DNA of 64,000 nt from an uncultured Bacteroidaceae bacterium. GTDB lineage: Bacteria; Bacillota; Clostridia; Christensenellales; CAG-917. The position numbers were made by a program, and so were the translations under genes. Under the pieces are notes generated by a model. That model had not been told where the DNA came from. It did not search any database and worked only from the letters and a program-made list of their open reading frames with translations. How positions within the stretch are numbered: the first letter of the stretch is position 1; every line of letters begins with the position of its first letter. Shown piece by piece: positions 27 through 53,322 of this stretch. The DNA lies in NCBI GenBank assembly GCA_964604875.1, contig CAZSAC010000001.1:30730-94729 (forward strand), given 5' to 3'.

Positions 27-103
27 GCCTTGGTAGCTCAGTTGGTAGTAGCAGTGGACTGAAAATCCACGTGTCGGTGGTTCAAGTCCGCCCCAAGGCA
101 CCA
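27..103 (+). tRNA. tRNA-Phe (anticodon GAA), CCA encoded
   Basis: Acceptor gccttgg/ccaaggc; anticodon stem gtgga/tccac with loop cuGAAaa; T-loop ggttcaagtcc; ends ACCA. Confidence 0.9.
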
Positions 104-214
104 AAGTGCATTACCCGTATTTCGCCACAGCTCTCACCGTTGTTTGTTGTGAGCAAGAGGTGAAATACTTTTATATAAGGGGAATTTGCCACAACTAGTT
201 TCCCCTATCAATAT

Positions 215-289
215 GCTGGTGTGGCTCAATGGCAGAGCAGCTGATTTGTAATCAGCAGGTTGTTGGTTCGACTCCGACCACCAGCTCCA
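215..289 (+). tRNA. tRNA-Thr (anticodon UGU), CCA encoded
   Basis: Acceptor gctggtg/caccagc; anticodon loop ttTGTaa; T-loop ggttcgactcc. Confidence 0.9.
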
Positions 290-294
290 ATTAT

Positions 295-379
295 GGGAAG
301 ATTCCCGAGTGGCCAAAGGGAGCGGACTGTAAATCCGTTAGCTAAGCTTTCGGTGGTTCGAATCCACCTCTTCCCACCA
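295..379 (+). tRNA. tRNA-Tyr (anticodon GUA), long variable arm, CCA encoded
   Basis: Acceptor gggaaga/tcttccc; anticodon loop ctGTAaa; long extra arm; T-loop ggttcgaatcc. Confidence 0.9.
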
Positions 380-14262: not shown

Positions 14263-14841
14263 TTATTCATCAATATATTTTGGCGTTGCAATCTCAAACA
14301 AGCACGAAAATAAAGCGAACAATATACAAAGTATGATGACGTTTATAAGAAAGACCAAAAGCAACTTTTTTAAAACCATTTTAGCCACTTGCCAACATAC
14401 ACTACATTTGCAAGAAGTGTATGGCGAAATTAAGGCTAACGCCGCATTCAGCAATAAAAAAGATGCGATGAAGTTTGGAATATATATAAACAAAATGCTT
14501 CCAAAAACCATAATCGAAAAATCATTAAAGAAAACGCCAAAAGCGCACCCGGCGAACATTCCTAAAATTGAAAATACCAAATAACCAAATATACTTAGCC
14601 AGCGCGATAGCGTTGATAAAAACAAACAGAAATAACATAAAAAAATCAAGCCTAAAAACCAAACAAGCGCTTGTTTGGAATTAAAAACCACTTCGATTTC
14701 ATCAGGAAGATTTATACACAGAATACCAAACACCAACCCAATTAAAAACAGTATAGCGTTTAGGATTATTACCCAACGGTATTCTTTAAAAAAATCACGT
14801 ATAATAAATTCAATATTTTGCTTGGCGTATGCTTTCACCAA
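14263..14841 (-). CDS. Multi-pass membrane protein of unknown function (architecture loosely SpoIIM-like); start codon uncertain (TTG/GTG, no SD)
   Basis: 192 aa with about 5 predicted TM helices; 27 nt downstream of the Spo0A_C gene, same strand. Confidence 0.4.
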   Translation of the reverse strand: MVKAYAKQNIEFIIRDFFKEYRWVIILNAILFLIGLVFGILCINLPDEIEVVFNSKQALVWFLGLIFLCYFCLFLSTLSRWLSIFGYLVFSILGMFAGCAFGVFFNDFSIMVFGSILFIYIPNFIASFLLLNAALALISPYTSCKCSVCWQVAKMVLKKLLLVFLINVIILCILFALFSCLFEIATPKYIDE

Positions 14842-14868: not shown

Positions 14869-15213
14869 TTATGCTTGTCTGGCTATGCTTTGCAGAGATA
14901 ATAACGCCGTCATAATGAACTGTTTGTTTGAAGGTTTACCTTTTCTCATATCAATGGTTTCGCCAAACTCGTCATACAAATTATTAACGTCGCCCTTAAG
15001 CCAAGCGGTTGAAATTGCATTTTGTACGTCTTTTTCAATGGCGGCGATTGATTTGTTATATTTATTTGACAGCCTGACATAGCCGGTATATTTTAACGGA
15101 AGCAACTCGTGTCCTTCCATTCCGCATTTTAAAAGTTCCGCCAAATATCTATAGCCCAGTTTATTTGGCACAAAGCCCAACTTTAGTAGGTATTCGGAAA
15201 TTAATTTGTCCAT
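14869..15213 (-). CDS. Stand-alone Spo0A C-terminal (DNA-binding) domain protein, no receiver domain
   Basis: 114 aa; aligns by eye to the B. subtilis Spo0A effector domain (LGYRYLAELL ~ KGYLYLREAI; IEKDVQNAISTAWLKGD ~ VERAIRHAIEVAWSRGN; KGKPSNKQFIMTAL ~ KAKPTNSEFIAMVA); strong SD GGAGGAG; only 96 nt separate it from the spoIVB stop. Confidence 0.85.
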   Translation of the reverse strand: MDKLISEYLLKLGFVPNKLGYRYLAELLKCGMEGHELLPLKYTGYVRLSNKYNKSIAAIEKDVQNAISTAWLKGDVNNLYDEFGETIDMRKGKPSNKQFIMTALLSLQSIARQA

Positions 15214-19553: not shown

Positions 19554-20327
19554 TTATTTCAATGCTAAAAAATCTGAATACTTTAATCTGTTGATAGTAT
19601 TATTTGTTTTTTCAAAAGCAAGCTTTACTGTGTACTCTATATTTTTATTTTTAAAATTTATTGGAACTGCGCATATGTTTTCCATATATAGTCCGATTGA
19701 ATTTGCATATTCCAAAACTTTGTTTATAACTTCCAGTCTTTCTTTTTTATCAACAACGACACCGCTTTTACCCGCGCGATGACCCAGTTCAAATTGAGGT
19801 TTAATCAAAGCGATTATACAGCCGTCTGGTTTCAACATAATACTTGCTGGCTTTAGTATATACTTTATCGAAATAAAACTAACGTCTATAGTAATTATGT
19901 CGGCATATTCGCCAATATCCTCAAAAACAAGCTCTCTTGCATTAAGTCTGTCCCGAATAACCACTCGACTGTCACGCTTAAGTTTATCAGAAAAAGCGCA
20001 CTCTGCCACGTCAACGGCAAAAACTTTTTTTGCGCCAAATTTTAAAAGACAATCGGTAAACCCCCCGTTTGACGCGCCTATATCAATGGCAGTTTTATTT
20101 ACAACGTCAAGTCTGAATACGTTGAAAGCTTTTTCAAGTTTATCCCCGCCCAAGCTCTCAAATTCTGCCGACGTATCAATTTCTATAACAGTATCGTCAT
20201 CGACCTCGGCAGATGGCTTGTCCGCAACAACTCCACCGATTTTAACCTTACCTTTTTTAATAAGGTTTAAGGCAAAGGTACGAGATTTGAGTTTATATTT
20301 TTCGAGAATATATAAATCAAGTCTCAT
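19554..20327 (-). CDS. tlyA: TlyA-family rRNA 2'-O-methyltransferase (S4 + FtsJ domains)
   Basis: 257 aa; N-terminal S4 RNA-binding region, SAM motif IDIGASNGGFTD. Confidence 0.85.
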   Translation of the reverse strand: MRLDLYILEKYKLKSRTFALNLIKKGKVKIGGVVADKPSAEVDDDTVIEIDTSAEFESLGGDKLEKAFNVFRLDVVNKTAIDIGASNGGFTDCLLKFGAKKVFAVDVAECAFSDKLKRDSRVVIRDRLNARELVFEDIGEYADIITIDVSFISIKYILKPASIMLKPDGCIIALIKPQFELGHRAGKSGVVVDKKERLEVINKVLEYANSIGLYMENICAVPINFKNKNIEYTVKLAFEKTNNTINRLKYSDFLALK

Positions 20328-22014
20328 TGAAAAAACTCACGGCTTTTTGCGTCAAATTTTCCAAACCAAACCCAAACTTTTGATACGCTTCAGAATCTGT
20401 CATATTTGCAATAGGCACATTTTCAAAAGCCATAGGCAAAATGAAATTTCCGTTATAGCCTTTTTGATTATAATGTTCTAAAATAGCGTCCGACAAACCG
20501 CCGCACAAAATATTGTCTTCAAGCACCATAATTTTTTTATCGCTGATTTCTTTAAGCATCAATTCGTCAATCGGGTGCGCAAATTTTGCGTCGATTATAT
20601 CAACATTTATGCCCTTAATTGCCAAATTATTGCGCAGTTTATGAGCAATATTACACATTTTTGCGCCAATATACAATATAACTTTGTCAGAATTATTATA
20701 AACGTCGTAAGACCATTTGCCCAACTCTATCGGCGCTGATTCGCCCAATTCAAGACTGTCACAACAGCCTTTACCATATCGAATAGCAAGCGGAAGGTTA
20801 CATTTTTGAGACCATTTAACCATTTTCTCCATTTCATCAAGGTCGCGCGGGGACGCTATATTCATCCCTGCTGTTCGCAAATAGCTGATGTTAATTAATC
20901 CTTGATGAGTTTCACCGTCGCCTGATACAACTCCGCTGTGATCAATACACAAAGTTACGGGCAGTTTTTGTATCATTATATCGTGAAGAATTTGGTCAAA
21001 TCCTCTTTGCAAAAACGTACTGTAAACTGCAAGATATGGTTTAAAACCCTCTTTTGCCAAAGCTGCGCACATTGTAACTGCGTGCTCTTCGGCTATACCT
21101 GTATCAATAAACCTGTTAGGATATTTTTCTGCAAAAGCAGTCAGCCCAACGCCCTCTTTCATCGCTGCGGTAACTGCAACAATTTTGTCGTCTTTTTCTG
21201 CCAACTTGCACAAAACCGCCGATAGCCTTTCGCCAAAGCTTTCGCTAGCGGGTTTGGAAACGCCGTATGAATGGCACTTCTCTATGGATTTGCCATTTTC
21301 GAAAAAGCCCTTGCCCTTGATTGTGTTTACGTGTACCACAACGCTTTTATCAGAGGCCTTGGCTTTGCGTAAAGCAGATATTAAATCTTCTAAATTATGC
21401 CCGTCGATTTGACCTATGTAATCAAAATCAAACAAATTAAAATATTCTTTTGCCGATTCAAATTTATTGAAAATCTTTGACAGCATCCCAACGGTTGGAG
21501 AAATTGCCATTTTATTGTCGTTTAAAATTATAATTTGTTTTCCCTTTTCCAAAGGACTGACGTTTAAAGCCTCAAATGACATTCCGTTTGAAATAGAACC
21601 GTCACCGATTAAAGAGATAATTTCAAAATCCTCTTTTTTTAAGGCTCTGGCGCGTAAAACTCCGCACGCAACAGATAAAGCCGTTCCACTATGTCCGGCG
21701 TCGAAGTAATCAAATTCGCTTTCGCTGGTTTTGGGAAAACCGCTTAAACCGCCTAGTGTACGAATTGTATTAAAGCCTTCTCTGGTCAATAGTTTATGCG
21801 TATAGCATTGATGTCCGACATCAAAAATAAGCTTATCTTTTGGAAAATCAAATACATAATGAAGCGCAATCGTAAGCTCAACTACGCCCAAATTTGACGC
21901 TAAATGCCCGCCGTTTGTGGTTATGACCTTAATAATTTCTTCTCTAATTTCGTCAGCAAGCCGATTTAACGATTTTATATCCAGCTTTTTTATATCACTT
22001 CTTTTTTCGAGCAC
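20317..22014 (-). CDS. dxs: 1-deoxy-D-xylulose-5-phosphate synthase (short-linker form)
   Basis: 565 aa; GGHLASNLG, GHSGT, TPP motif GDGSISNGMSFEALN, transketolase pyrimidine-binding and C-terminal domains. Confidence 0.9.
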   Translation of the reverse strand: MLEKRSDIKKLDIKSLNRLADEIREEIIKVITTNGGHLASNLGVVELTIALHYVFDFPKDKLIFDVGHQCYTHKLLTREGFNTIRTLGGLSGFPKTSESEFDYFDAGHSGTALSVACGVLRARALKKEDFEIISLIGDGSISNGMSFEALNVSPLEKGKQIIILNDNKMAISPTVGMLSKIFNKFESAKEYFNLFDFDYIGQIDGHNLEDLISALRKAKASDKSVVVHVNTIKGKGFFENGKSIEKCHSYGVSKPASESFGERLSAVLCKLAEKDDKIVAVTAAMKEGVGLTAFAEKYPNRFIDTGIAEEHAVTMCAALAKEGFKPYLAVYSTFLQRGFDQILHDIMIQKLPVTLCIDHSGVVSGDGETHQGLINISYLRTAGMNIASPRDLDEMEKMVKWSQKCNLPLAIRYGKGCCDSLELGESAPIELGKWSYDVYNNSDKVILYIGAKMCNIAHKLRNNLAIKGINVDIIDAKFAHPIDELMLKEISDKKIMVLEDNILCGGLSDAILEHYNQKGYNGNFILPMAFENVPIANMTDSEAYQKFGFGLENLTQKAVSFFNET

Positions 22015-22681
22015 TTTTACTCTCCTTCGTAAAAAACGAAATAAATTTTGCGGTTACCATAACAAATTCCTTCGATTGCTTAATAGCGTACGCCTTAACA
22101 AACGCTTTGCCTCCGACAATCGCCGCAGAAACCACGCTGCTTATGGCAATCGTGACGATTTGTTCAATCAAGGTTGACGCGTCAAGCAAAACTTTTCCTG
22201 CAATAACAACCGTACACGCGCCTGCCAAAATACCAAAAATGTCACCGATAACGTCGTTACAAATATTTGATACCTTGTCTGCATTTTTGACAAGCTTAAT
22301 GGCAATTTTACTTCCGGGAACTTTTCTGCTTGCCATAGCCGTTAAGGGGCCTAGTTCACAAGCAGCGACCGCCACGCCGATTCCGTCAAACAATATACTT
22401 CCGATAATTAAAAACAACAGCAACAAAATAACTATTAATACATTATTCGCAGTTGCCGTCATTTGCGCCACAAAACTGAAAAATGCCGACAAAAAAAACG
22501 TAATAACTGTAGCTTTTATCGCCCAATGCGACTTAGCCCCGTTATTTTTGAATTTTTTATCGGATTTGTTTCGCGTTTTTTTGACAGGTGTAGCTTCGGA
22601 TTTTGATTCGTTTAAAGGTAACGCCTGTCCTTCATTTAACGGCACTTCGAGATTGTCGTCGAAATTGTCGTTGTTATCCAT
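21995..22681 (-). CDS. oapA: Small 4-TM membrane protein, candidate OLE-associated protein A
   Basis: Start moved to the ATG at 22681 (SD agaggaa); 228 aa; hydrophilic N-terminus then 4 predicted TM helices; DVIGD (D-x3-D) at the start of TM3; position between the large non-coding region and dxs. Confidence 0.6.
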   Translation of the reverse strand: MDNNDNFDDNLEVPLNEGQALPLNESKSEATPVKKTRNKSDKKFKNNGAKSHWAIKATVITFFLSAFFSFVAQMTATANNVLIVILLLLFLIIGSILFDGIGVAVAACELGPLTAMASRKVPGSKIAIKLVKNADKVSNICNDVIGDIFGILAGACTVVIAGKVLLDASTLIEQIVTIAISSVVSAAIVGGKAFVKAYAIKQSKEFVMVTAKFISFFTKESKSARKKK

Positions 22682-22708
22682 ATATTCCTCTTTTTTAAAA
22701 AAATTAAT

Positions 22709-23285
22709 GGTGGTAACATTTTGAGTAAACCTTGCGCCTTTAGGTCTAGTTGACTTTCTCTCCACAAAAACTCTTCGTCGCCGATAGAGAAGTTTCCTAT
22801 TATATTGCAGACTACGGAGTTGCCGTCCGCAGGACTAGATTGCCACTTAGAGCACACTATAATCCCCAAAATATTTCCAATGGAACAGCCTAGAAGATTT
22901 CCTTTACAGTCCAAGAGCACACTTAGCTTCTTTTGCAAGCTGAGTTTCATCGGGCAATCGGCAAAAGCACATTGGCCAACATACAATGCCGTGTTCCCAA
23001 ATTCACACCGATCACTCAAAGCAGGCTACTCTGCACACAGCTTTTTGCCGCATTACAGGTTTTCACTAACCAGTAGAAGATTTGACGTCTACCGAATTAG
23101 GCCTCCACGATAATTGGGTCGCAGGTCGCATGCCATTGCGACTCGCCCAAAAATCTTAACTCCCAGCAACAGCCCTTGTTTGGGCAACAAAGGCCACCAC
23201 CAGAAACTTCATCGATATGCCCTTTAACGGTATTTTAACCCCGTCTTGGGTGTGGCTGGACTGACTAGGATACTGCACCACCATT
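22709..23285 (-). ncRNA. ole: Candidate OLE (ornate, large, extremophilic) RNA, ~575 nt
   Basis: ORF-poor region, GC-richer than neighbouring intergenic DNA, between ispA and the 4-TM gene; own TTGTAA-17-TATAAT promoter; 5' GGUGGU can pair with 3' ACCACC; the operon context xseAB-ispA-RNA-oapA-dxs-tlyA-nadK-argR-recN matches the published OLE locus. Ends are approximate and no covariance search was run. Confidence 0.65.
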
Positions 23286-23292
23286 TTTTTGT

Positions 23293-23321
23293 ATTATAAC
23301 ACAATCAAATATAAATTACAA
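23293..23321 (-). promoter_or_regulatory. Sigma-A type promoter directly upstream of the OLE-like RNA
   Basis: Minus strand TTGTAA-17 nt-TATAAT; predicted start near 23285, just before GGUGGUGCAG. Confidence 0.55.
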
Positions 23322-23343
23322 CATATTATATATTTATACACTG

Positions 23344-24159
23344 CTAAAGTTTAATATACTTTCCAAAAAAGCCTAATAATTCAAGCAAAAGTTGAGGATT
23401 TTTAAATTTATCGGCAAGATTTTTTGCAGATTTTACCAAACTATCCAACTCATTAATGGCAAAATCACGTCCGTACAATTTTGCATAGTTTAACTCTTCT
23501 TCAAAAATGATGCCTTGGTCGAAGTCGTCTAAATCGTCGGCAATTTGAAAAGCTAAACCAAATCTGTGCGAAAATTCCACCAGCGTGTCTAATATTTCCT
23601 TGTCATCTGTAAACAACGTTGCGCCTGCAAGCAATGCGCCTTCAAAAAGCTTACCCGTTTTGTAAAGAAAGATTTTTTCCAACTGATTACAGTGCGATAA
23701 ATCCAAAAATTGTCCATAAACCATACCGTTTATGCCCGATGATTTTGCCAAAATTGACGACGCATTAATTGCCCGCTCATCTTTGGCATTTTGAAACAAA
23801 ATTTCAAAAGCAGAGTTTAACAGCGCGTCTCCGACCAATAAAGCCAGCCATTCGCCGTATTTTTTATGGACAGTAAGCTCGCCCCGTCTTAAATCGTCGT
23901 TGTCCATACAGGGTAAATCATCGTGAACCAAAGAATAATTATGGATAAGCTCAATGGCAATCGCATATGGCATCGCCTTGTCAATATCGCCTCCGACAAG
24001 GCTCGCGCCGGTCAACAGCATAATCGGACGCAACCGCTTTCCACCTCTTACAGCATATGCGACAGCCTCGCCAAGCTCGCCCTTATCAGTATATCCTTTT
24101 GCCCAGTTCTGTACGGCAGAATCAACCAAAAGTTTTAGCGATGTTAGATTATTCATCAA
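23344..24159 (-). CDS. ispA: Farnesyl/geranyl diphosphate synthase (polyprenyl synthetase)
   Basis: 271 aa; first DDxxD region LVHDDLPCMDNDDLRRG and second motif FQIADDLDD. Confidence 0.88.
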   Translation of the reverse strand: MMNNLTSLKLLVDSAVQNWAKGYTDKGELGEAVAYAVRGGKRLRPIMLLTGASLVGGDIDKAMPYAIAIELIHNYSLVHDDLPCMDNDDLRRGELTVHKKYGEWLALLVGDALLNSAFEILFQNAKDERAINASSILAKSSGINGMVYGQFLDLSHCNQLEKIFLYKTGKLFEGALLAGATLFTDDKEILDTLVEFSHRFGLAFQIADDLDDFDQGIIFEEELNYAKLYGRDFAINELDSLVKSAKNLADKFKNPQLLLELLGFFGKYIKL

Positions 24160-42572: not shown

Positions 42573-42875
42573 TCACGCATTTTCATTTTTGATAATAGCG
42601 TTCGCCAATTCCATATCGGTGACGGCTATTACCTTACAATTTTGCTTCTTTAAAATACCCTCCAAGGTTTGTTCCTTTAAGACAATCAGCGGAGAATTCG
42701 TTTTTTCGCAATACGCCTTAATTTGCTTGGACGTATTCTCCCCTGCGCTTGAGCAAAGAATAATGACTCTATGACGTTTTCCTCGTTTTGTAATCGAATC
42801 TACGCCAAAAATAATTTTTCCTGCCCTTGCGGCAAACCCTATATAGCTTTCAATTTTCGGTATCAGTGAAGTCAT
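42573..42875 (-). CDS. ylxQ: L7Ae-family (K-turn binding) protein YlxQ
   Basis: 100 aa; GFAARAGKIIFG pattern of the L7Ae/YlxQ family; nusA-ylxR-ylxQ-infB context. Confidence 0.8.
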   Translation of the reverse strand: MTSLIPKIESYIGFAARAGKIIFGVDSITKRGKRHRVIILCSSAGENTSKQIKAYCEKTNSPLIVLKEQTLEGILKKQNCKVIAVTDMELANAIIKNENA

Positions 42876-45621: not shown

Positions 45622-47586
45622 TTATACCCTGCCCGTTTCTCGCGCTAAACGGCGTTTGTCTTTTTCAACCTCTTTTTGGAAGGATTTATCATCAAGCTTA
45701 AGCTTTTTCATTAGGCTGGGTTTAGGTATGCCGTTTTCATCCCATTGACGTGACTTATAAAATTTCTTTCTAAGTTTATCCATTGGGACTTTCGTCTTTT
45801 TATTTGAAGGGTCCTCGCATTCGTCGGTCAATTTTTTGGGAAGCTTATCCTGACTGCCTTGCAAACCTAAGCGGATATTCAACATTCTTTCCAAGTTCCA
45901 CCCACGTTTGCCAACCTTTAGAAAATCACCAATTTTATAATTCATACCCGTACAATGATTTATTGCAACGGGATAGGTTATCATACCTTCCAAATTCACC
46001 GCAAGCATACCCGGGTGATGGTTGATTAAATCAACAATACCACCGATATAAGGCGCTACTGCATTGACAATCCTTGTCGGTAAAAAGTTGGGTTTGGCAA
46101 TCAAAAAGCCCGGCAAAACCTGATATGACGTGAACAAGCAAGTGCCAGCGGCGGAAATTGCTTCCATAAAGTCTTGGAAAAATACCGTAAACGCAGCCTT
46201 TCCAAAAGGCGTAAGCTGATTTATGCTTAACCCCAAACCTTCTAATATAACCAAATAACCTGCGTTTAAGTGACAACCGCCACGGTTTGACGTTGCGTAT
46301 CCCAAGCCCATACCCACGGCGTGTCTTGGCTCGTATGCGGAAAGCTCCATACCTTTTACGTTTATGGCAAAGTCTGTTCCGCCGTATTTTTCTGCAAGCC
46401 AACGACTGCCCTCTGCAAGCTCGTCGCCGACACCACGACGCAACGCAATATCTTCAATTAGCTGTGAAATATTATCGATTTTCCCAAATTCTAAGCCTAA
46501 ATCTGCCATTCCTTTTTCTTTAAGCTCCATAGCAAAAGCCACAGTACCCGAAAAGGAAATTGTATCCATACCGTATTCGTCAAGCTCGTAATTCCACTTA
46601 AAAATGCTTTCTAAATCGCTGTTTAAAATATTCGGCCCCAATAAGCCCAAAATTTCCAACTCGGGACCTTTAACCGCCTTATTATCTACGTCAACAACTC
46701 TCGTACATTGAATCGGGCAAGATAGACAGCCCTTATTTTTTATCAAAAATTCTTCCGCAAGTCTTTCACCGCTGACTTTTTCAAAATCATCATAGGTGCC
46801 CTTGCTGAAGTTTTTGGTTGCCAAGATATGCTTTGCCTGCATCTGTGTAACTAAGCCCGCAGTCCCCAAACGAGGAAGCTGACTGCCTGTTAAAGGATGT
46901 TTTTTTAGCCTTGCAACCCAAGCTTTTGCAGTTTTTTGTAATTTTTCTTTATCGAAAGCCGTGTTGCCGATAGAGCCTTCAGCAGTGATAGCCTTAACGT
47001 TTTTACTGCCTAAAACCCCGCCGAGACCCGCGCGTCCGGCAGTCCTCTCATCGCTGAATAAGCCTGCGTATTTAACCCTATTTTCGCCGGCGGGTCCAAT
47101 AACAAGTTTACCGCATTTTCCGCCGATTTTTTCTTGAACTTCGCTAGTTTTAAGACCCCACAGTTCTGTCGCGTCTTCAAAAGTGATTTTGTCTCCGACA
47201 ATTTTAATAAGGGTTTTACCTTCTGCCTTGCCCGTTATAATAATGCCGTCGAAACCACACCGCTTCATCTGCATACCAAAAGGTCCGCCACAGTTTGAGG
47301 AAGCCACAAGCCCGGTTTGCGGAGATATCCCCGACACGTTAAAACGCGCGCTGGAAGGCAAGCCGTTGTTCGTAAAAGGACCGGTTGTGATAACCAAAAG
47401 ATTTTCCTCGCCATACGGGTCAATCTTATCTTTGATATTGTTATATAAAATTTTGGCAGCCATAACCTTGCCACCCAAAAAGAGACGTCTTTCGGTATCC
47501 GACCAAGGATAATCCGAGACTGTCTTTGTGGTTAAATCGATTTTTATTACTCTGCCGACATAGCCGCCGTATTTAGTATTACTCAT
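45622..47586 (-). CDS. aor: Aldehyde:ferredoxin oxidoreductase family (tungstopterin) enzyme
   Basis: 654 aa; AFOR N-domain, 4Fe-4S cysteines (CLSCPIQC), SNRGGCH motif. Confidence 0.87.
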   Translation of the reverse strand: MSNTKYGGYVGRVIKIDLTTKTVSDYPWSDTERRLFLGGKVMAAKILYNNIKDKIDPYGEENLLVITTGPFTNNGLPSSARFNVSGISPQTGLVASSNCGGPFGMQMKRCGFDGIIITGKAEGKTLIKIVGDKITFEDATELWGLKTSEVQEKIGGKCGKLVIGPAGENRVKYAGLFSDERTAGRAGLGGVLGSKNVKAITAEGSIGNTAFDKEKLQKTAKAWVARLKKHPLTGSQLPRLGTAGLVTQMQAKHILATKNFSKGTYDDFEKVSGERLAEEFLIKNKGCLSCPIQCTRVVDVDNKAVKGPELEILGLLGPNILNSDLESIFKWNYELDEYGMDTISFSGTVAFAMELKEKGMADLGLEFGKIDNISQLIEDIALRRGVGDELAEGSRWLAEKYGGTDFAINVKGMELSAYEPRHAVGMGLGYATSNRGGCHLNAGYLVILEGLGLSINQLTPFGKAAFTVFFQDFMEAISAAGTCLFTSYQVLPGFLIAKPNFLPTRIVNAVAPYIGGIVDLINHHPGMLAVNLEGMITYPVAINHCTGMNYKIGDFLKVGKRGWNLERMLNIRLGLQGSQDKLPKKLTDECEDPSNKKTKVPMDKLRKKFYKSRQWDENGIPKPSLMKKLKLDDKSFQKEVEKDKRRLARETGRV

Positions 47587-50092: not shown

Positions 50093-50506
50093 TTACAAGT
50101 ATTGTCTTAATTCTTTAATATTGCAGTCATAAAGTTCAATCAAATCACCCACCAGTGGCGGAGTTTCGATACCATCATTATTGGCTTCGTGCGTTTGAGA
50201 AATAATTTCATTTATACCAAGATTGTTTCCTTCAATAAGCATTTGGGCAATATTTTTATTTGATTTATCCATACAAGCCTTCATTTTGGTTGCCGAACGC
50301 ACCATCATATTTTGAAAGAATTCTCCCTTAACCTCATCGCTTAAGTCGCCTTCACAAACCGCTCTATCTTTTATTTCTGCAAGTTTTTCTCTTTGATTGA
50401 CAACGATATTTCTAAACTCATCGTCTTTAACACATGTTTTTATGCTGTCAATCGCCTCAATACCCATATTGGCATTTTTTGCTACTTCCATAATTAAATC
50501 ACTCAT
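50093..50506 (-). CDS. Hypothetical helical protein
   Basis: Start set at the ATG preceded by ggagga (MSDLIMEV...); 137 aa, predicted all-helical, no motif recognised. Confidence 0.5.
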   Translation of the reverse strand: MSDLIMEVAKNANMGIEAIDSIKTCVKDDEFRNIVVNQREKLAEIKDRAVCEGDLSDEVKGEFFQNMMVRSATKMKACMDKSNKNIAQMLIEGNNLGINEIISQTHEANNDGIETPPLVGDLIELYDCNIKELRQYL

Positions 50507-50551
50507 ACCAAATCCTCCAGACTTAGTATGAGTCATATTTTTTTATAAATA

Positions 50552-52034: not shown

Positions 52035-52121
52035 TGGTGCCGAAAACCGGACTCGAACCGGTACGGCTGTTACACCGAGGGATTTTAAGTCCCTTGCGTC
52101 TGCCTATTCCGCCACTTCGGC
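52035..52121 (-). tRNA. tRNA-Leu (anticodon UAA), long variable arm, CCA encoded
   Basis: Acceptor GCCGAAG/UUUCGGC; anticodon loop cuUAAaa; T-loop gguucgagucc. Confidence 0.9.
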
Positions 52122-52125
52122 AAAT

Positions 52126-52199
52126 TGGAGGCACCACCCAGACTTGAACTGGGGATAAAGGCTTTGCAGGCCTCTGCCTTACCACTTGGCTATGGTGCC
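52126..52199 (-). tRNA. tRNA-Cys (anticodon GCA), CCA encoded
   Basis: Acceptor GGCACCA/UGGUGCC; anticodon loop cuGCAaa; T-loop aguucaagucu. Confidence 0.9.
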
Positions 52200-52205
52200 A
52201 AAACT

Positions 52206-52280
52206 TGGAGCGGGAGACGGGATTCGGACCCGCGACTTCCACCTTGGCAAGGTGGCATTCTACCACTGAATCACTCCCGC
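52206..52280 (-). tRNA. tRNA-Gly (anticodon GCC), CCA encoded
   Basis: Acceptor GCGGGAG/CUCCCGC; anticodon loop uuGCCaa. Confidence 0.9.
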
Positions 52281-52333
52281 ATATTATATGCTTTGGCAAC
52301 AAAAACGCTACATTTATTAAGTTTTAAATTTCC

Positions 52334-52504
52334 GCGCGCCTACCCTCGCTTTGCGCTCGGACTCAACTTGCTCACTGCTAGGCTTGCTGTCTGTGTTTGT
52401 CTTTTGCGCGCCTACCCTCGCTTTGCGCTCGGACTCAACTTGCTCACTGCTAGGCTTGGCTTATAACTCTGTCTTTCACGCGCCTACCCTCGCTTTGCGC
52501 TCGG
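52334..52504. repeat. GC-rich tandem direct repeat, 72-bp period, about 2.4 copies, inside the tRNA operon spacer
   Basis: gcgcgcctaccctcgctttgcgctcggactcaacttgctcactgctaggcttg is identical at 52334 and 52406; the first 26 nt recur at 52479; each unit is bounded by the self-complementary GCGCGC. Confidence 0.9.
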
Positions 52505-52525
52505 GGCGGCTTTCCTGCGCTCGTT

Positions 52526-52637
52526 TATGCCCTCAAGTCGTTCCGCCTTTTGAACATAAATTTTTGCATTACTGCAAGCAGTATGCAAGCAATTTATGTT
52601 TTCCCTCAAAGTCAACTTTGCTGACTTTGAGGGCATA
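52526..52637 (-). other. Three related segments allowing mutually exclusive helices (12-bp local hairpin versus ~100-nt long-range pairing)
   Basis: ttatgccctcaa(g)tc at 52526, ccctcaaagtca at 52604, inverted copy tgactttgagggcataa at 52621. Confidence 0.6.
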
Positions 52638-52644
52638 ACTCGCT

Positions 52645-52720
52645 TGGTGCGCCTTCAGGGATTCGAACCCGGGACCCACTGATTAAGAGTCAGTTGCTCT
52701 ACCAACTGAGCTAAAGGCGC
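52645..52720 (-). tRNA. tRNA-Lys (anticodon CUU), CCA encoded
   Basis: Acceptor GCGCCUU/AAGGCGC; anticodon loop cuCUUaa. Confidence 0.9.
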
Positions 52721-52727
52721 ATAAATT

Positions 52728-52769
52728 TTCAAGGTGCGGAAAAAAAATTTTTTCTGTCGCACCTTGAAA
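52728..52769 (-). other. Long near-perfect hairpin between two tRNA genes
   Basis: ttcaaggtgcg...cgcaccttgaa outer stem, with an inner A-run/T-run extension. Confidence 0.7.
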
Positions 52770-52772
52770 TGT

Positions 52773-52856
52773 TGGTGCGACCGAAAGGACTTGAACCTTC
52801 ACATCATGGATACTAGATCCTAAGTCTAGCGCGTCTGCCAATTCCGCCACGGTCGC
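52773..52856 (-). tRNA. tRNA-Leu (anticodon UAG), long variable arm, CCA encoded
   Basis: Acceptor GCGACCG/CGGUCGC; anticodon loop cuUAGga. Confidence 0.9.
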
Positions 52857-52872
52857 AGATTTAAATTAAGTT

Positions 52873-52948
52873 TGGTGACCCATCCGCGACTCGAACGCGG
52901 GACACCTTGATTAAAAGTCAAGTGCTCTACCGACTGAGCTAATGGGTC
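52873..52948 (-). tRNA. tRNA-Lys (anticodon UUU), CCA encoded
   Basis: Acceptor GACCCAU/AUGGGUC; anticodon loop cuUUUaa. Confidence 0.9.
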
Positions 52949-52952
52949 ATAA

Positions 52953-53027
52953 TGGCAGGGGTGGCAAGATTTGAACTTACGAATGCTAGAGTCAAAGTCT
53001 AGTGCCTTACCGCTTGGCGACACCCCT
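52953..53027 (-). tRNA. tRNA-Gln (anticodon UUG), CCA encoded
   Basis: Acceptor AGGGGUG/CACCCCU; anticodon loop cuUUGac. Confidence 0.88.
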
Positions 53028-53061
53028 AAAAACTGTCCTACCAACGCACGCAATATGGATG

Positions 53062-53139
53062 TGGGGTGAGTAATGGGATTCGAACCCATGGCCTCCAGGG
53101 CCACAACCTGGCGCTCTAACCAGCTGAGCTATACCCACC
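53062..53139 (-). tRNA. tRNA-His (anticodon GUG) with encoded G-1, CCA encoded
   Basis: Extra 5' G opposite the discriminator C; anticodon loop uuGUGgc. Confidence 0.88.
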
Positions 53140-53142
53140 ATA

Positions 53143-53219
53143 TGGCGAGCCAGAAGGGATTCGAACCCCTGACCTACGGCTTAGAAGGCCGTTGCTCTAT
53201 CCTACTGAGCTACTGGCCC
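53143..53219 (-). tRNA. tRNA-Arg (anticodon UCU), CCA encoded
   Basis: Acceptor GGGCCAG/CUGGCUC; anticodon loop cuUCUaa. Confidence 0.9.
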
Positions 53220-53248
53220 TCATTGCGCATTGTAGGATTTGGCGTTAA

Positions 53249-53322
53249 TGGAGCGGGTGATGGGAATCGGACCCACGCGGTCAGCTTGGAAGGCTGATAT
53301 TCTACCATTGAACTACACCCGC
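53249..53322 (-). tRNA. tRNA-Gly (anticodon UCC), CCA encoded
   Basis: Acceptor GCGGGUG/CACCCGC; anticodon loop cuUCCaa. Confidence 0.9.

Follow-up and report, generated by a model that had tools for sequence, protein, structure and literature searches.

RNAs of the OLE (ornate, large, extremophilic) class are well represented in the Bacillota, where 2,822 representatives have already been mapped (PMC11332333), and the biochemical function of the class has yet to be settled (PMC12265935, PMC11332333). In Bacillus halodurans, OLE RNA has its own promoter, is stable, and is associated with alcohol and cold phenotypes; the proximal promoter was verified experimentally, and the 5′ ends of the RNA lie at the start of stem P1 (PMC3413148). 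The RNA is organized in two domains, one made up of P1, P2, and P10 to P15 and the other of P3 to P9 (PMC12265935), and models of an OLE dimer at the membrane have been described (PMC12286853, PMC12265935). Its partner protein OapA is related to MpfA (PMC11332333). Here we analyze the 662-base gap between the end of ispA (position 23344) and the ATG codon of oapA (position 22681), spanning positions 22682 to 23343 in a 64,000-nucleotide stretch of contig CAZSAC010000001.1 (assembly GCA_964604875.1; hereafter, the window). We are highly confident that the gap carries a functional, full-length OLE RNA gene with OapA as its partner.

Several other RNAs, namely, ROOL, GOLLD, raiA, HEARO, group I and group II introns, and RNase P, are comparable in size and structural complexity. 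ROOL and GOLLD form homo-oligomers, as OLE does. The window RNA differs from ROOL, GOLLD, raiA, HEARO, and the large ribozymes in having a gene context and conserved sequence blocks that are specific to OLE.

A sequence-only reading of the window had proposed that the gap holds OLE RNA. It pointed to a G+C content higher than that of other intergenic stretches, a near-consensus promoter (TTGTAA-17-TATAAT) at 23321 to 23293, a closing helix between GGUGGU and ACCACC bounding a domain of ~575 nucleotides (nt), the gene order xseA-xseB-ispA-[RNA]-small four-transmembrane protein-dxs-tlyA-nadK-argR-recN, with the small protein taken to be OapA, and the lack of any credible gene in the gap, which held only two overlapping, opposite-strand open reading frames (ORFs) without Shine-Dalgarno (SD) sequences that an ORF-only annotation would mislabel as hypothetical proteins. 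It also suggested a covariance-model search, an alignment with OLE representatives, and an inspection of the kink turn (k-turn), and it held that a lack of compensatory base changes would speak against an OLE RNA. Each of these points was borne out by the analyses that follow, down to the exact coordinates of the two ORFs.

Results

The gap contains a full-length match to the OLE covariance model. The minus strand of the gap matched Rfam OLE model RF01071 with a score of 441 bits (gathering score, 50; E = 3.3e-126), and the match covered model positions 1 to 616 of 616 and was not truncated. When the whole window was scanned against Rfam 15, no family except OLE and tRNA reached its threshold, and other large RNA classes were rejected as candidates on that basis. 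The G+C content of the OLE match is 44.5%, compared with 39.9% for the whole window, 20 to 30% for six further intergenic stretches, each 139 nt or longer, and 17 to 25% for the two short spacers that flank the OLE match. The positions of the RNA, its landmarks, and the genes around it are collected in Table 1.

Table 1. Position and character of the features discussed in the text (window coordinates)
Feature	Coordinates	Strand	Remarks
OLE RNA gene	22694-23297	minus	Extent of the RF01071 match
OLE core, P1 to P1	22709-23282	minus	574 nt
Sigma-A-type promoter	23293-23321	minus	TTGTAA-17-TATAAT with TG-extended -10; 10/12 positions
P1, 5′ strand	23277-23282	minus	GGUGGU; complementarity, covariation, fold
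P2, 5′ strand	23265-23275	minus	CAG..CCUAG with palindromic CUAG; CUAG reported as OapA site
P3 and P3.1, 5′ strands	23250-23263	minus	Membrane-spanning stem according to a proposal in the literature
P4 loop, A rich	23231-23238	minus	UUAAAAUA; minority variant of the common CUAAAAAU
J4a/5 segment	23205-23225	minus	AAAGGGCAUAUCGAUGAAGUU; k-turn strand, OapC site (PMC9723947)
J6/7	23103-23109	minus	CGUGGAG; second k-turn strand in the cryo-electron microscopy structure (PMC12286853)
P9 terminal loop	22972-22979	minus	UUGGCCAA with palindromic GGCC; kissing loop, dimer bridge B3
P3.1 and P3, 3′ strands	22907-22922	minus	Pair with 23250-23263
P2, 3′ strand	22886-22893	minus	CUAGGCUG; pairs with 23265-23275
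P13 hairpin	22812-22832	minus	GNRA tetraloop GCAA, one bulged nucleotide; OapB-type site
P15 mini-hairpin	22752-22760	minus	GA[GAAAG]UC; A-U replaces a near-invariant G-C
P1, 3′ strand	22709-22714	minus	ACCACC; 99% of cells paired
U-rich tail	22697-22708	minus	AUUAAUUUUUUU; directly after P1; also U rich in the Rfam consensus
Spurious ORF, 127 aa	22636-23019	minus	TTG start; inside the OLE gene
Spurious antisense ORF, 102 aa	22805-23113	plus	TTG start; inside the OLE gene
oapA, 228 aa	21995-22681	minus	SD GAGG at 22687-22690, five bases upstream of ATG 22681
ispA	23344-24159	minus	Polyprenyl_synt, 141 bits; upstream neighbor
dxs, 565 aa (short)	20317-22014	minus	GTG start; shares 20 nt with the end of oapA; downstream neighbor
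L7Ae-family gene	42573-42875	minus	Between nusA and infB; best PDB match Bacillus subtilis YlxQ (3v7q)

Base pairs and conserved positions are maintained. One genome per GTDB species was scanned with a conserved 21-mer from the 5′ region of OLE, giving at least 120 loci. From the 120 loci listed, 106 complete OLE sequences were cut out by alignment-based trimming, which replaced a strict regular expression for the 3′ end that had caught only 13 of the 120 homologues. These 106 public sequences and the window sequence (n = 107) were aligned with MAFFT L-INS-i on sequence alone; because the alignment was not structure aware, the covariation counts given here are conservative. Under the Rfam structure, 86.5% of the sequence-by-pair cells were paired, in contrast to 40 to 46% when the 3′ partner was slid by 1 to 3 columns, and the conserved multistem architecture can be formed. 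Changes on both sides were seen at 131 of the 157 consensus pairs, and every helix has several pairs whose compensatory changes recur in two or three sequences or more. When the RF01071 structure was mapped onto the window sequence, 134 of the 157 pairs were canonical.

About 25% of OLE nucleotides are near invariant, a criterion for the class. Among the 106 public OLEs, 168 columns were at least 97% conserved (~20 of them fixed by the search pattern), and the window sequence agreed with 166 of these. The two mismatches, G539A (position 22759) and C545U (position 22753), stand opposite one another in P15 and convert a G-C pair to A-U; at this inner P15 pair the window sequence alone of the 107 has A-U, and 105 of the other 106 have G-C. 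With the conservation level lowered to 90%, there were six deviations, of which two more, C278U and G370A, likewise form a compensatory pair, in P9. The compensatory changes and the conserved columns together imply that the RNA has been selected for its structure and is not a relic. Its closest public counterparts, among the matches listed for the 106 to 118 OLEs compared, are only ~71 to 73% identical in nucleotide sequence and come from metagenome-assembled genomes (MAGs) labeled Christensenella; the true nearest relative may lie outside those matches.

Stems P1, P2, P3, and P3.1 are absent from the Rfam model, in which the first 52 nucleotides are unpaired, and we assigned them by complementarity and from the published description of the domains (PMC12265935). 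From its complementarity, covariation, and fold, we identify the GGUGGU/ACCACC pairing with P1 as published. Of the six bases in the 5′ strand of P1, five were part of the search pattern. The outermost pair was free to vary; it covaried (GC 73, AU 25, GU 4, and UA 1) and was paired in 103 of 106 sequences. P2 was paired in all 107 sequences, and its sole variable pair also covaried (UA 80, CG 22, and UG 5). Pairing in P3.1 reached 90%, compared with 38 to 60% in the slid controls, and each of its positions showed four to eight pair types; pairing in P3 reached 69%, compared with 29 to 41%. Thus, on the aligned sequences, P1, P2, and P3.1 covary wherever their positions are free to do so. The minimum-free-energy fold of the window sequence by itself closed P1 and formed P3, P5, P6.1, P7, P8, and P12, with a z score of -2.85 relative to shuffled sequences.

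The sequence carries all the landmarks that experiments in other species have established. Both k-turn strands in the window are identical to the invariant consensus, and the GAUGAAG of J4a/5 is invariant across the 107 sequences. The P4 loop, which forms dimer bridge B1 in the cryo-electron microscopy models (PMC12286853, PMC12265935), has one A replaced; the same variant occurs in 12 listed loci, all of which carry Christensenellales-type labels or are unclassified Clostridia. The palindromic GGCC of the P9 loop (22974 to 22977), which forms a symmetric kissing loop in the cryo-electron microscopy dimer (PMC12286853), was present in 91 of 107 sequences, and the rare replacements for it, AGCU, GAUC, and GCGC, are likewise palindromic. 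Loops P5.1 (GCCCA) and P6.1 (AAUGGCA) agree with the consensus. At the sequence level, the dimerization elements (A-rich L4, complementary L5.1/L6.1, and palindromic L9) are in place, and dimer formation itself is predicted. Elsewhere, P14.1 ends in a GNRA loop (GCGA), and P13, after reregistration by eye, can form eight pairs with C473 bulged.

In length, P7 (39 nt), P8 (28 nt), P9 (97 nt), and P13 (21 nt) each lie near the median, P7 and P8 falling a few nucleotides short of it, and the window OLE thus belongs to the full-length type. This distinguishes it from OLE variants 1 (TANB77) and 2 (RF39), described by Fernando and Breaker in 2024, which belong to the same class and share a context of gut- or anaerobe-type Clostridia; in those variants, P7 to P9 are shortened or missing and the OapB site in P13 is often absent, whereas P7, P8, P9, and P13 are all present in the window RNA (PMC11332333).

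A promoter lies at the conserved distance from P1. The promoter at 23321 to 23293 is the best promoter-like site between positions 21900 and 24300. Its -10 hexamer ends 11 nt before GUGGU, and transcription is predicted to start at ~23285 to 23287, 3 to 5 nt before P1. The nearest listed relatives (loci L003, L066, L095, L049, and L045) have a perfect TTGACA-16/17-TATAAT promoter 11 to 12 nt before P1. More broadly, 51 of the 120 listed loci carry a site in which 9 or more of 12 positions match and the -10 element ends 5 to 16 nt before P1, compared with 2.7% of shuffled upstream regions; with ~42% of listed loci having a strong sigma-70-type promoter at this fixed distance, a dedicated promoter appears to be widespread in ole genes. 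The placement is in line with the verified proximal promoter of B. halodurans (PMC3413148). In the 80 nt upstream of each OLE, many of the promoters among the listed loci were perfect TTGACA-16/17-TATAAT sites.

No canonical terminator or terminator-like hairpin was found between ispA and dxs, which makes read-through into oapA-dxs likely and, equally, read-in from xseA-xseB-ispA. The start codon of oapA comes just 27 nt after P1, and, given this spacing and the absence of a terminator, ole and oapA are probably cotranscribed.

The gene downstream of the RNA encodes OapA. Tested against Pfam, the 228-aa product gave a CNNM (PF01595) match of 24.5 bits, below the cutoff of 28.4, and no other domains, which resembles the description of OapA as distant from the CNNM domain and scoring below true MpfA (PMC11332333). 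Four hydrophobic segments were found on the Kyte-Doolittle scale (residues ~53 to 77, 70 to 111, 142 to 172, and 170 to 195). The DxxxD motif distinctive of OapA (PMC11332333) is present as D143-VIG-D147 within NDVIGD and is conserved in at least 90% of 92 homologues. These homologues were aligned with the window copy (93 proteins in total), which also retains FDxIGxAV (as FDGIGVAV), E.P..AMAS.KV, and VGGKA. With tblastn, OapA homologues were detected in 97 of the 120 listed OLE loci, directly downstream of the RNA. From these sequence characters, the downstream gene is a bona fide oapA. Its four hydrophobic segments, DxxxD motif, and subthreshold match to the CNNM/DUF21 domain of the MpfA/CorB Mg2+ transporters make up the pattern published for OapA, and it differs from MpfA in having no CBS or CorC domain.

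The window OapA differs from its homologues in length and sequence. An extra charged N-terminal segment of ~50 aa, absent from most of the homologues, brings it to 228 aa, compared with a median of ~202 aa, and it is at most 51 to 56% identical to any OapA found in the listed OLE loci and a metagenome scan. The metagenome scan returned 27 loci, none above 56% identity and hence no close relatives, and a PDB sequence search with OapA gave no meaningful match. The oapA frame is also open upstream to a GTG codon at 22765, inside OLE, and the longer frame (21995 to 22765, minus strand) would give a 256-aa protein.

The neighborhood is that of other OLE loci. By Pfam assignment, the gene order is folD-xseA-xseB-ispA-OLE-oapA-dxs-tlyA-nadK-argR-recN, followed by spoIVB, with nusB, an asp23-family gene, and spoIIIAA-AH upstream of the folD-recN cluster. 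The neighborhood thus combines isoprenoid, DNA repair, folate, and sporulation genes, as expected for OLE. The same order recurs in dozens of the listed public OLE loci, and it agrees with the set of genes published as ole associated (PMC12265935). The flanking proteins are at most ~62% identical to their counterparts in the sampled loci. The DXP_synthase_N match of the short dxs product is split into two stretches, suggesting a shortened linker segment.

The remainder of the window is a housekeeping and sporulation region encoded almost entirely on the minus strand. It also contains two tRNA arrays, one of 3 genes (27 to 376, plus strand) and one of 10 genes (52038 to 53322, minus strand). 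Sporulation genes in the window include the spoIIIA operon, spoIVA, and spoIVB, and an aldehyde:ferredoxin oxidoreductase gene (45622 to 47586, minus strand) adjoining an aldo/keto reductase gene is an anaerobic marker; the sporulation genes and the oxidoreductase point to a spore-forming, anaerobic member of the Bacillota as the host. Directly after spoIVB, the usual position of spo0A, lies a 114-aa gene (14869 to 15213, minus strand) with its own SD sequence whose product consists solely of the C-terminal DNA-binding domain of Spo0A (PF08769, 63 bits). A receiver domain could not be accommodated, since spoIVB ends 97 nt upstream. The gene may encode a receiver-less Spo0A-like regulator, or a true spo0A may lie elsewhere. 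Searched against the 8-kb OLE loci, which are too short to reach it, the gene gave no hits.

Among the public OLE loci, two came from MAGs labeled "uncultured Bacteroides sp." (L095, CAZXUW010000003.1) and "Deltaproteobacteria bacterium" (L042, JBLMYQ010000034.1). These contigs are probably misbinned or mislabeled Bacillota, the same judgment that Fernando and Breaker reached for non-Bacillota OLE matches (PMC11332333).

Discussion

The window RNA shares with the OLE RNAs of Halalkalibacterium halodurans and Clostridium acetobutylicum a full-length model match, all stems from P1 to P15, invariant k-turn strands, a GGCC kissing loop, GNRA loops on P13 and P14.1, a promoter of its own just before P1, and an oapA gene immediately downstream, in a cluster with ispA, dxs, xseAB, folD, argR, and recN. 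It differs from other OLEs in its limited nucleotide identity to the matches listed, in its P4 loop (UUAAAAUA in place of CUAAAAAU), a clade trait held in common with the 12 Christensenellales-type loci, in the A-U pair of P15, in its slightly short P7 and P8, and in a P13 bulge that lies nearer the loop.

Could the locus be a decaying, nonfunctional OLE that still scores with the covariance model? Rare defective ole genes have been described in organisms without OapA (Fernando and Breaker, PMC11332333), 23 of the 157 consensus pairs are noncanonical in the window, and P7 and P8 are somewhat below the median length. The mismatches, however, cluster where the alignment posterior probability is low; the highly conserved columns are intact but for two changes that compensate each other, the promoter has been kept at its conserved distance, and oapA is intact with all of its motifs. 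We regard decay as very unlikely. An alternative in which the structured RNA acts only in cis, as a long 5′ leader regulating oapA-dxs, and not as a stable trans-acting RNA, would fit the lack of a terminator-like site between OLE and oapA and the 27-nt spacing that makes cotranscription probable. Yet the B. halodurans OLE, which belongs to the same class as the window RNA, accumulates as one highly stable ~600-nt band and interacts with OapA (PMC3413148, PMC12265935), and the size, the proportion of invariant nucleotides, and the dimer contacts far exceed those of any known leader, so that a purely cis-acting role seems extremely improbable.

That the gap encodes one or both of the hypothetical proteins of 127 and 102 aa can be discounted almost entirely. 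The ORFs do exist, and the longest stop-free stretch, of 119 aa, was reached in only 3.8% of shuffled sequences. Against coding stand their TTG starts, the absence of a well-placed SD sequence, and a Pfam search in which neither ORF gave a match at an E value of ≤0.01. The homologous region is free of stop codons, in any frame, in only 1 of 106 relatives for the minus-strand ORF and in 7 of 106 for the antisense ORF, length differences among relatives are spread evenly over the three residues modulo 3, and substitutions preserve base pairs and not codons. Given the lack of Pfam matches, of conservation, and of a modulo-3 bias, the internal ORFs should not be annotated.

A functional OLE RNA thus remains our strongly preferred reading, and several points weigh against it or temper it. 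The noncanonical pairs mentioned above are mostly found at the P7 and P9 stem tips, which the model aligns poorly and with low posterior probability. The comparison set was gathered with a 20-base 5′ pattern, so the conservation of those bases holds by construction. OapB recognition requires a GNRA loop plus one bulged nucleotide in P13 (PMC7936274); in the window, the bulge lies one pair from the tetraloop, not three, and this displacement toward the loop makes OapB-type recognition uncertain. Neither oapB nor oapC was found in the 64-kb window. The L7Ae-family gene is assigned as a YlxQ paralogue of OapC/YbxF, and not as OapC, because its best PDB match is YlxQ; a YlxQ-type protein could be a k-turn binder available to OLE. 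Two further products gave no evident OapB: a 147-aa protein (50093 to 50536, minus strand), with no Pfam family and no PDB match, and a very hydrophobic 192-aa protein (14263 to 14841, minus strand) encoded directly downstream of the Spo0A C-terminal domain gene, for which neither a Pfam family nor a meaningful PDB match was found. Finally, expression, the RNA ends, membrane localization, and phenotype would all be carried over from other species.

By analogy with the OLE RNAs of H. halodurans and Clostridium, from which the following steps are taken, an RNA of ~580 nt would be produced in large amounts, both by its own promoter and through transcripts running on from xseA-xseB-ispA, and transcription would continue past OLE into oapA-dxs, with no terminator between them. 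The RNA would fold into domain 1 (P3 to P9) and domain 2 (P1, P2, and P10 to P15) and would dimerize through the A-rich P4 loop, the P5.1 and P6.1 loops, and the palindromic GGCC of the P9 loop. In H. halodurans, the binding of OapA to OLE RNA is cooperative and anchors the RNA at the membrane (PMC12265935); if this carries over, OapA dimers would hold OLE at the membrane here as well. The particle may then help the cell under stress from short-chain alcohols, cold, excess Mg2+, or poor carbon sources, most likely by controlling a CNNM-like transport of divalent cations by OapA, in concert with partner proteins that occupy the k-turn and P13. This mode of action is borrowed from other species, we hold any specific biochemical mechanism to be much less certain than the identity of the gene, and the locus cannot discriminate between such mechanisms.

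The host might represent a deep, unsampled lineage of spore-forming, anaerobic Clostridia near the Christensenellales whose OLE carries natural "mutations" at otherwise fixed places, namely, the substituted A in the A-A helix loop of dimer bridge B1, the unique A-U pair in the P15 stem of the four-way junction, and the displaced P13 bulge. We consider this proposal unlikely; if it were true, the locus would be a naturally occurring variant of use in relating structure to function in OLE dimerization and OapB recognition, and the neighboring receiver-less Spo0A-like gene might point to an uncommon connection with the control of sporulation.

The locus is a standard member of a curated, already known Rfam family and nothing new in kind; with so many representatives already mapped (PMC11332333), one more canonical OLE locus adds little, and it sheds no new light on what OLE does biochemically. 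The correct annotation is an OLE RNA gene followed by oapA, where an ORF-only pipeline would call one or two hypothetical proteins or extend oapA to the upstream GTG codon. For specialists, the results indicate that a strong promoter at a fixed distance is present in ~40% of the sampled loci and not only in B. halodurans, that the pairs of P1 and P2 that are free to vary do covary, and that P15 can carry a compensatory A-U pair where nearly all other OLE RNAs have G-C.

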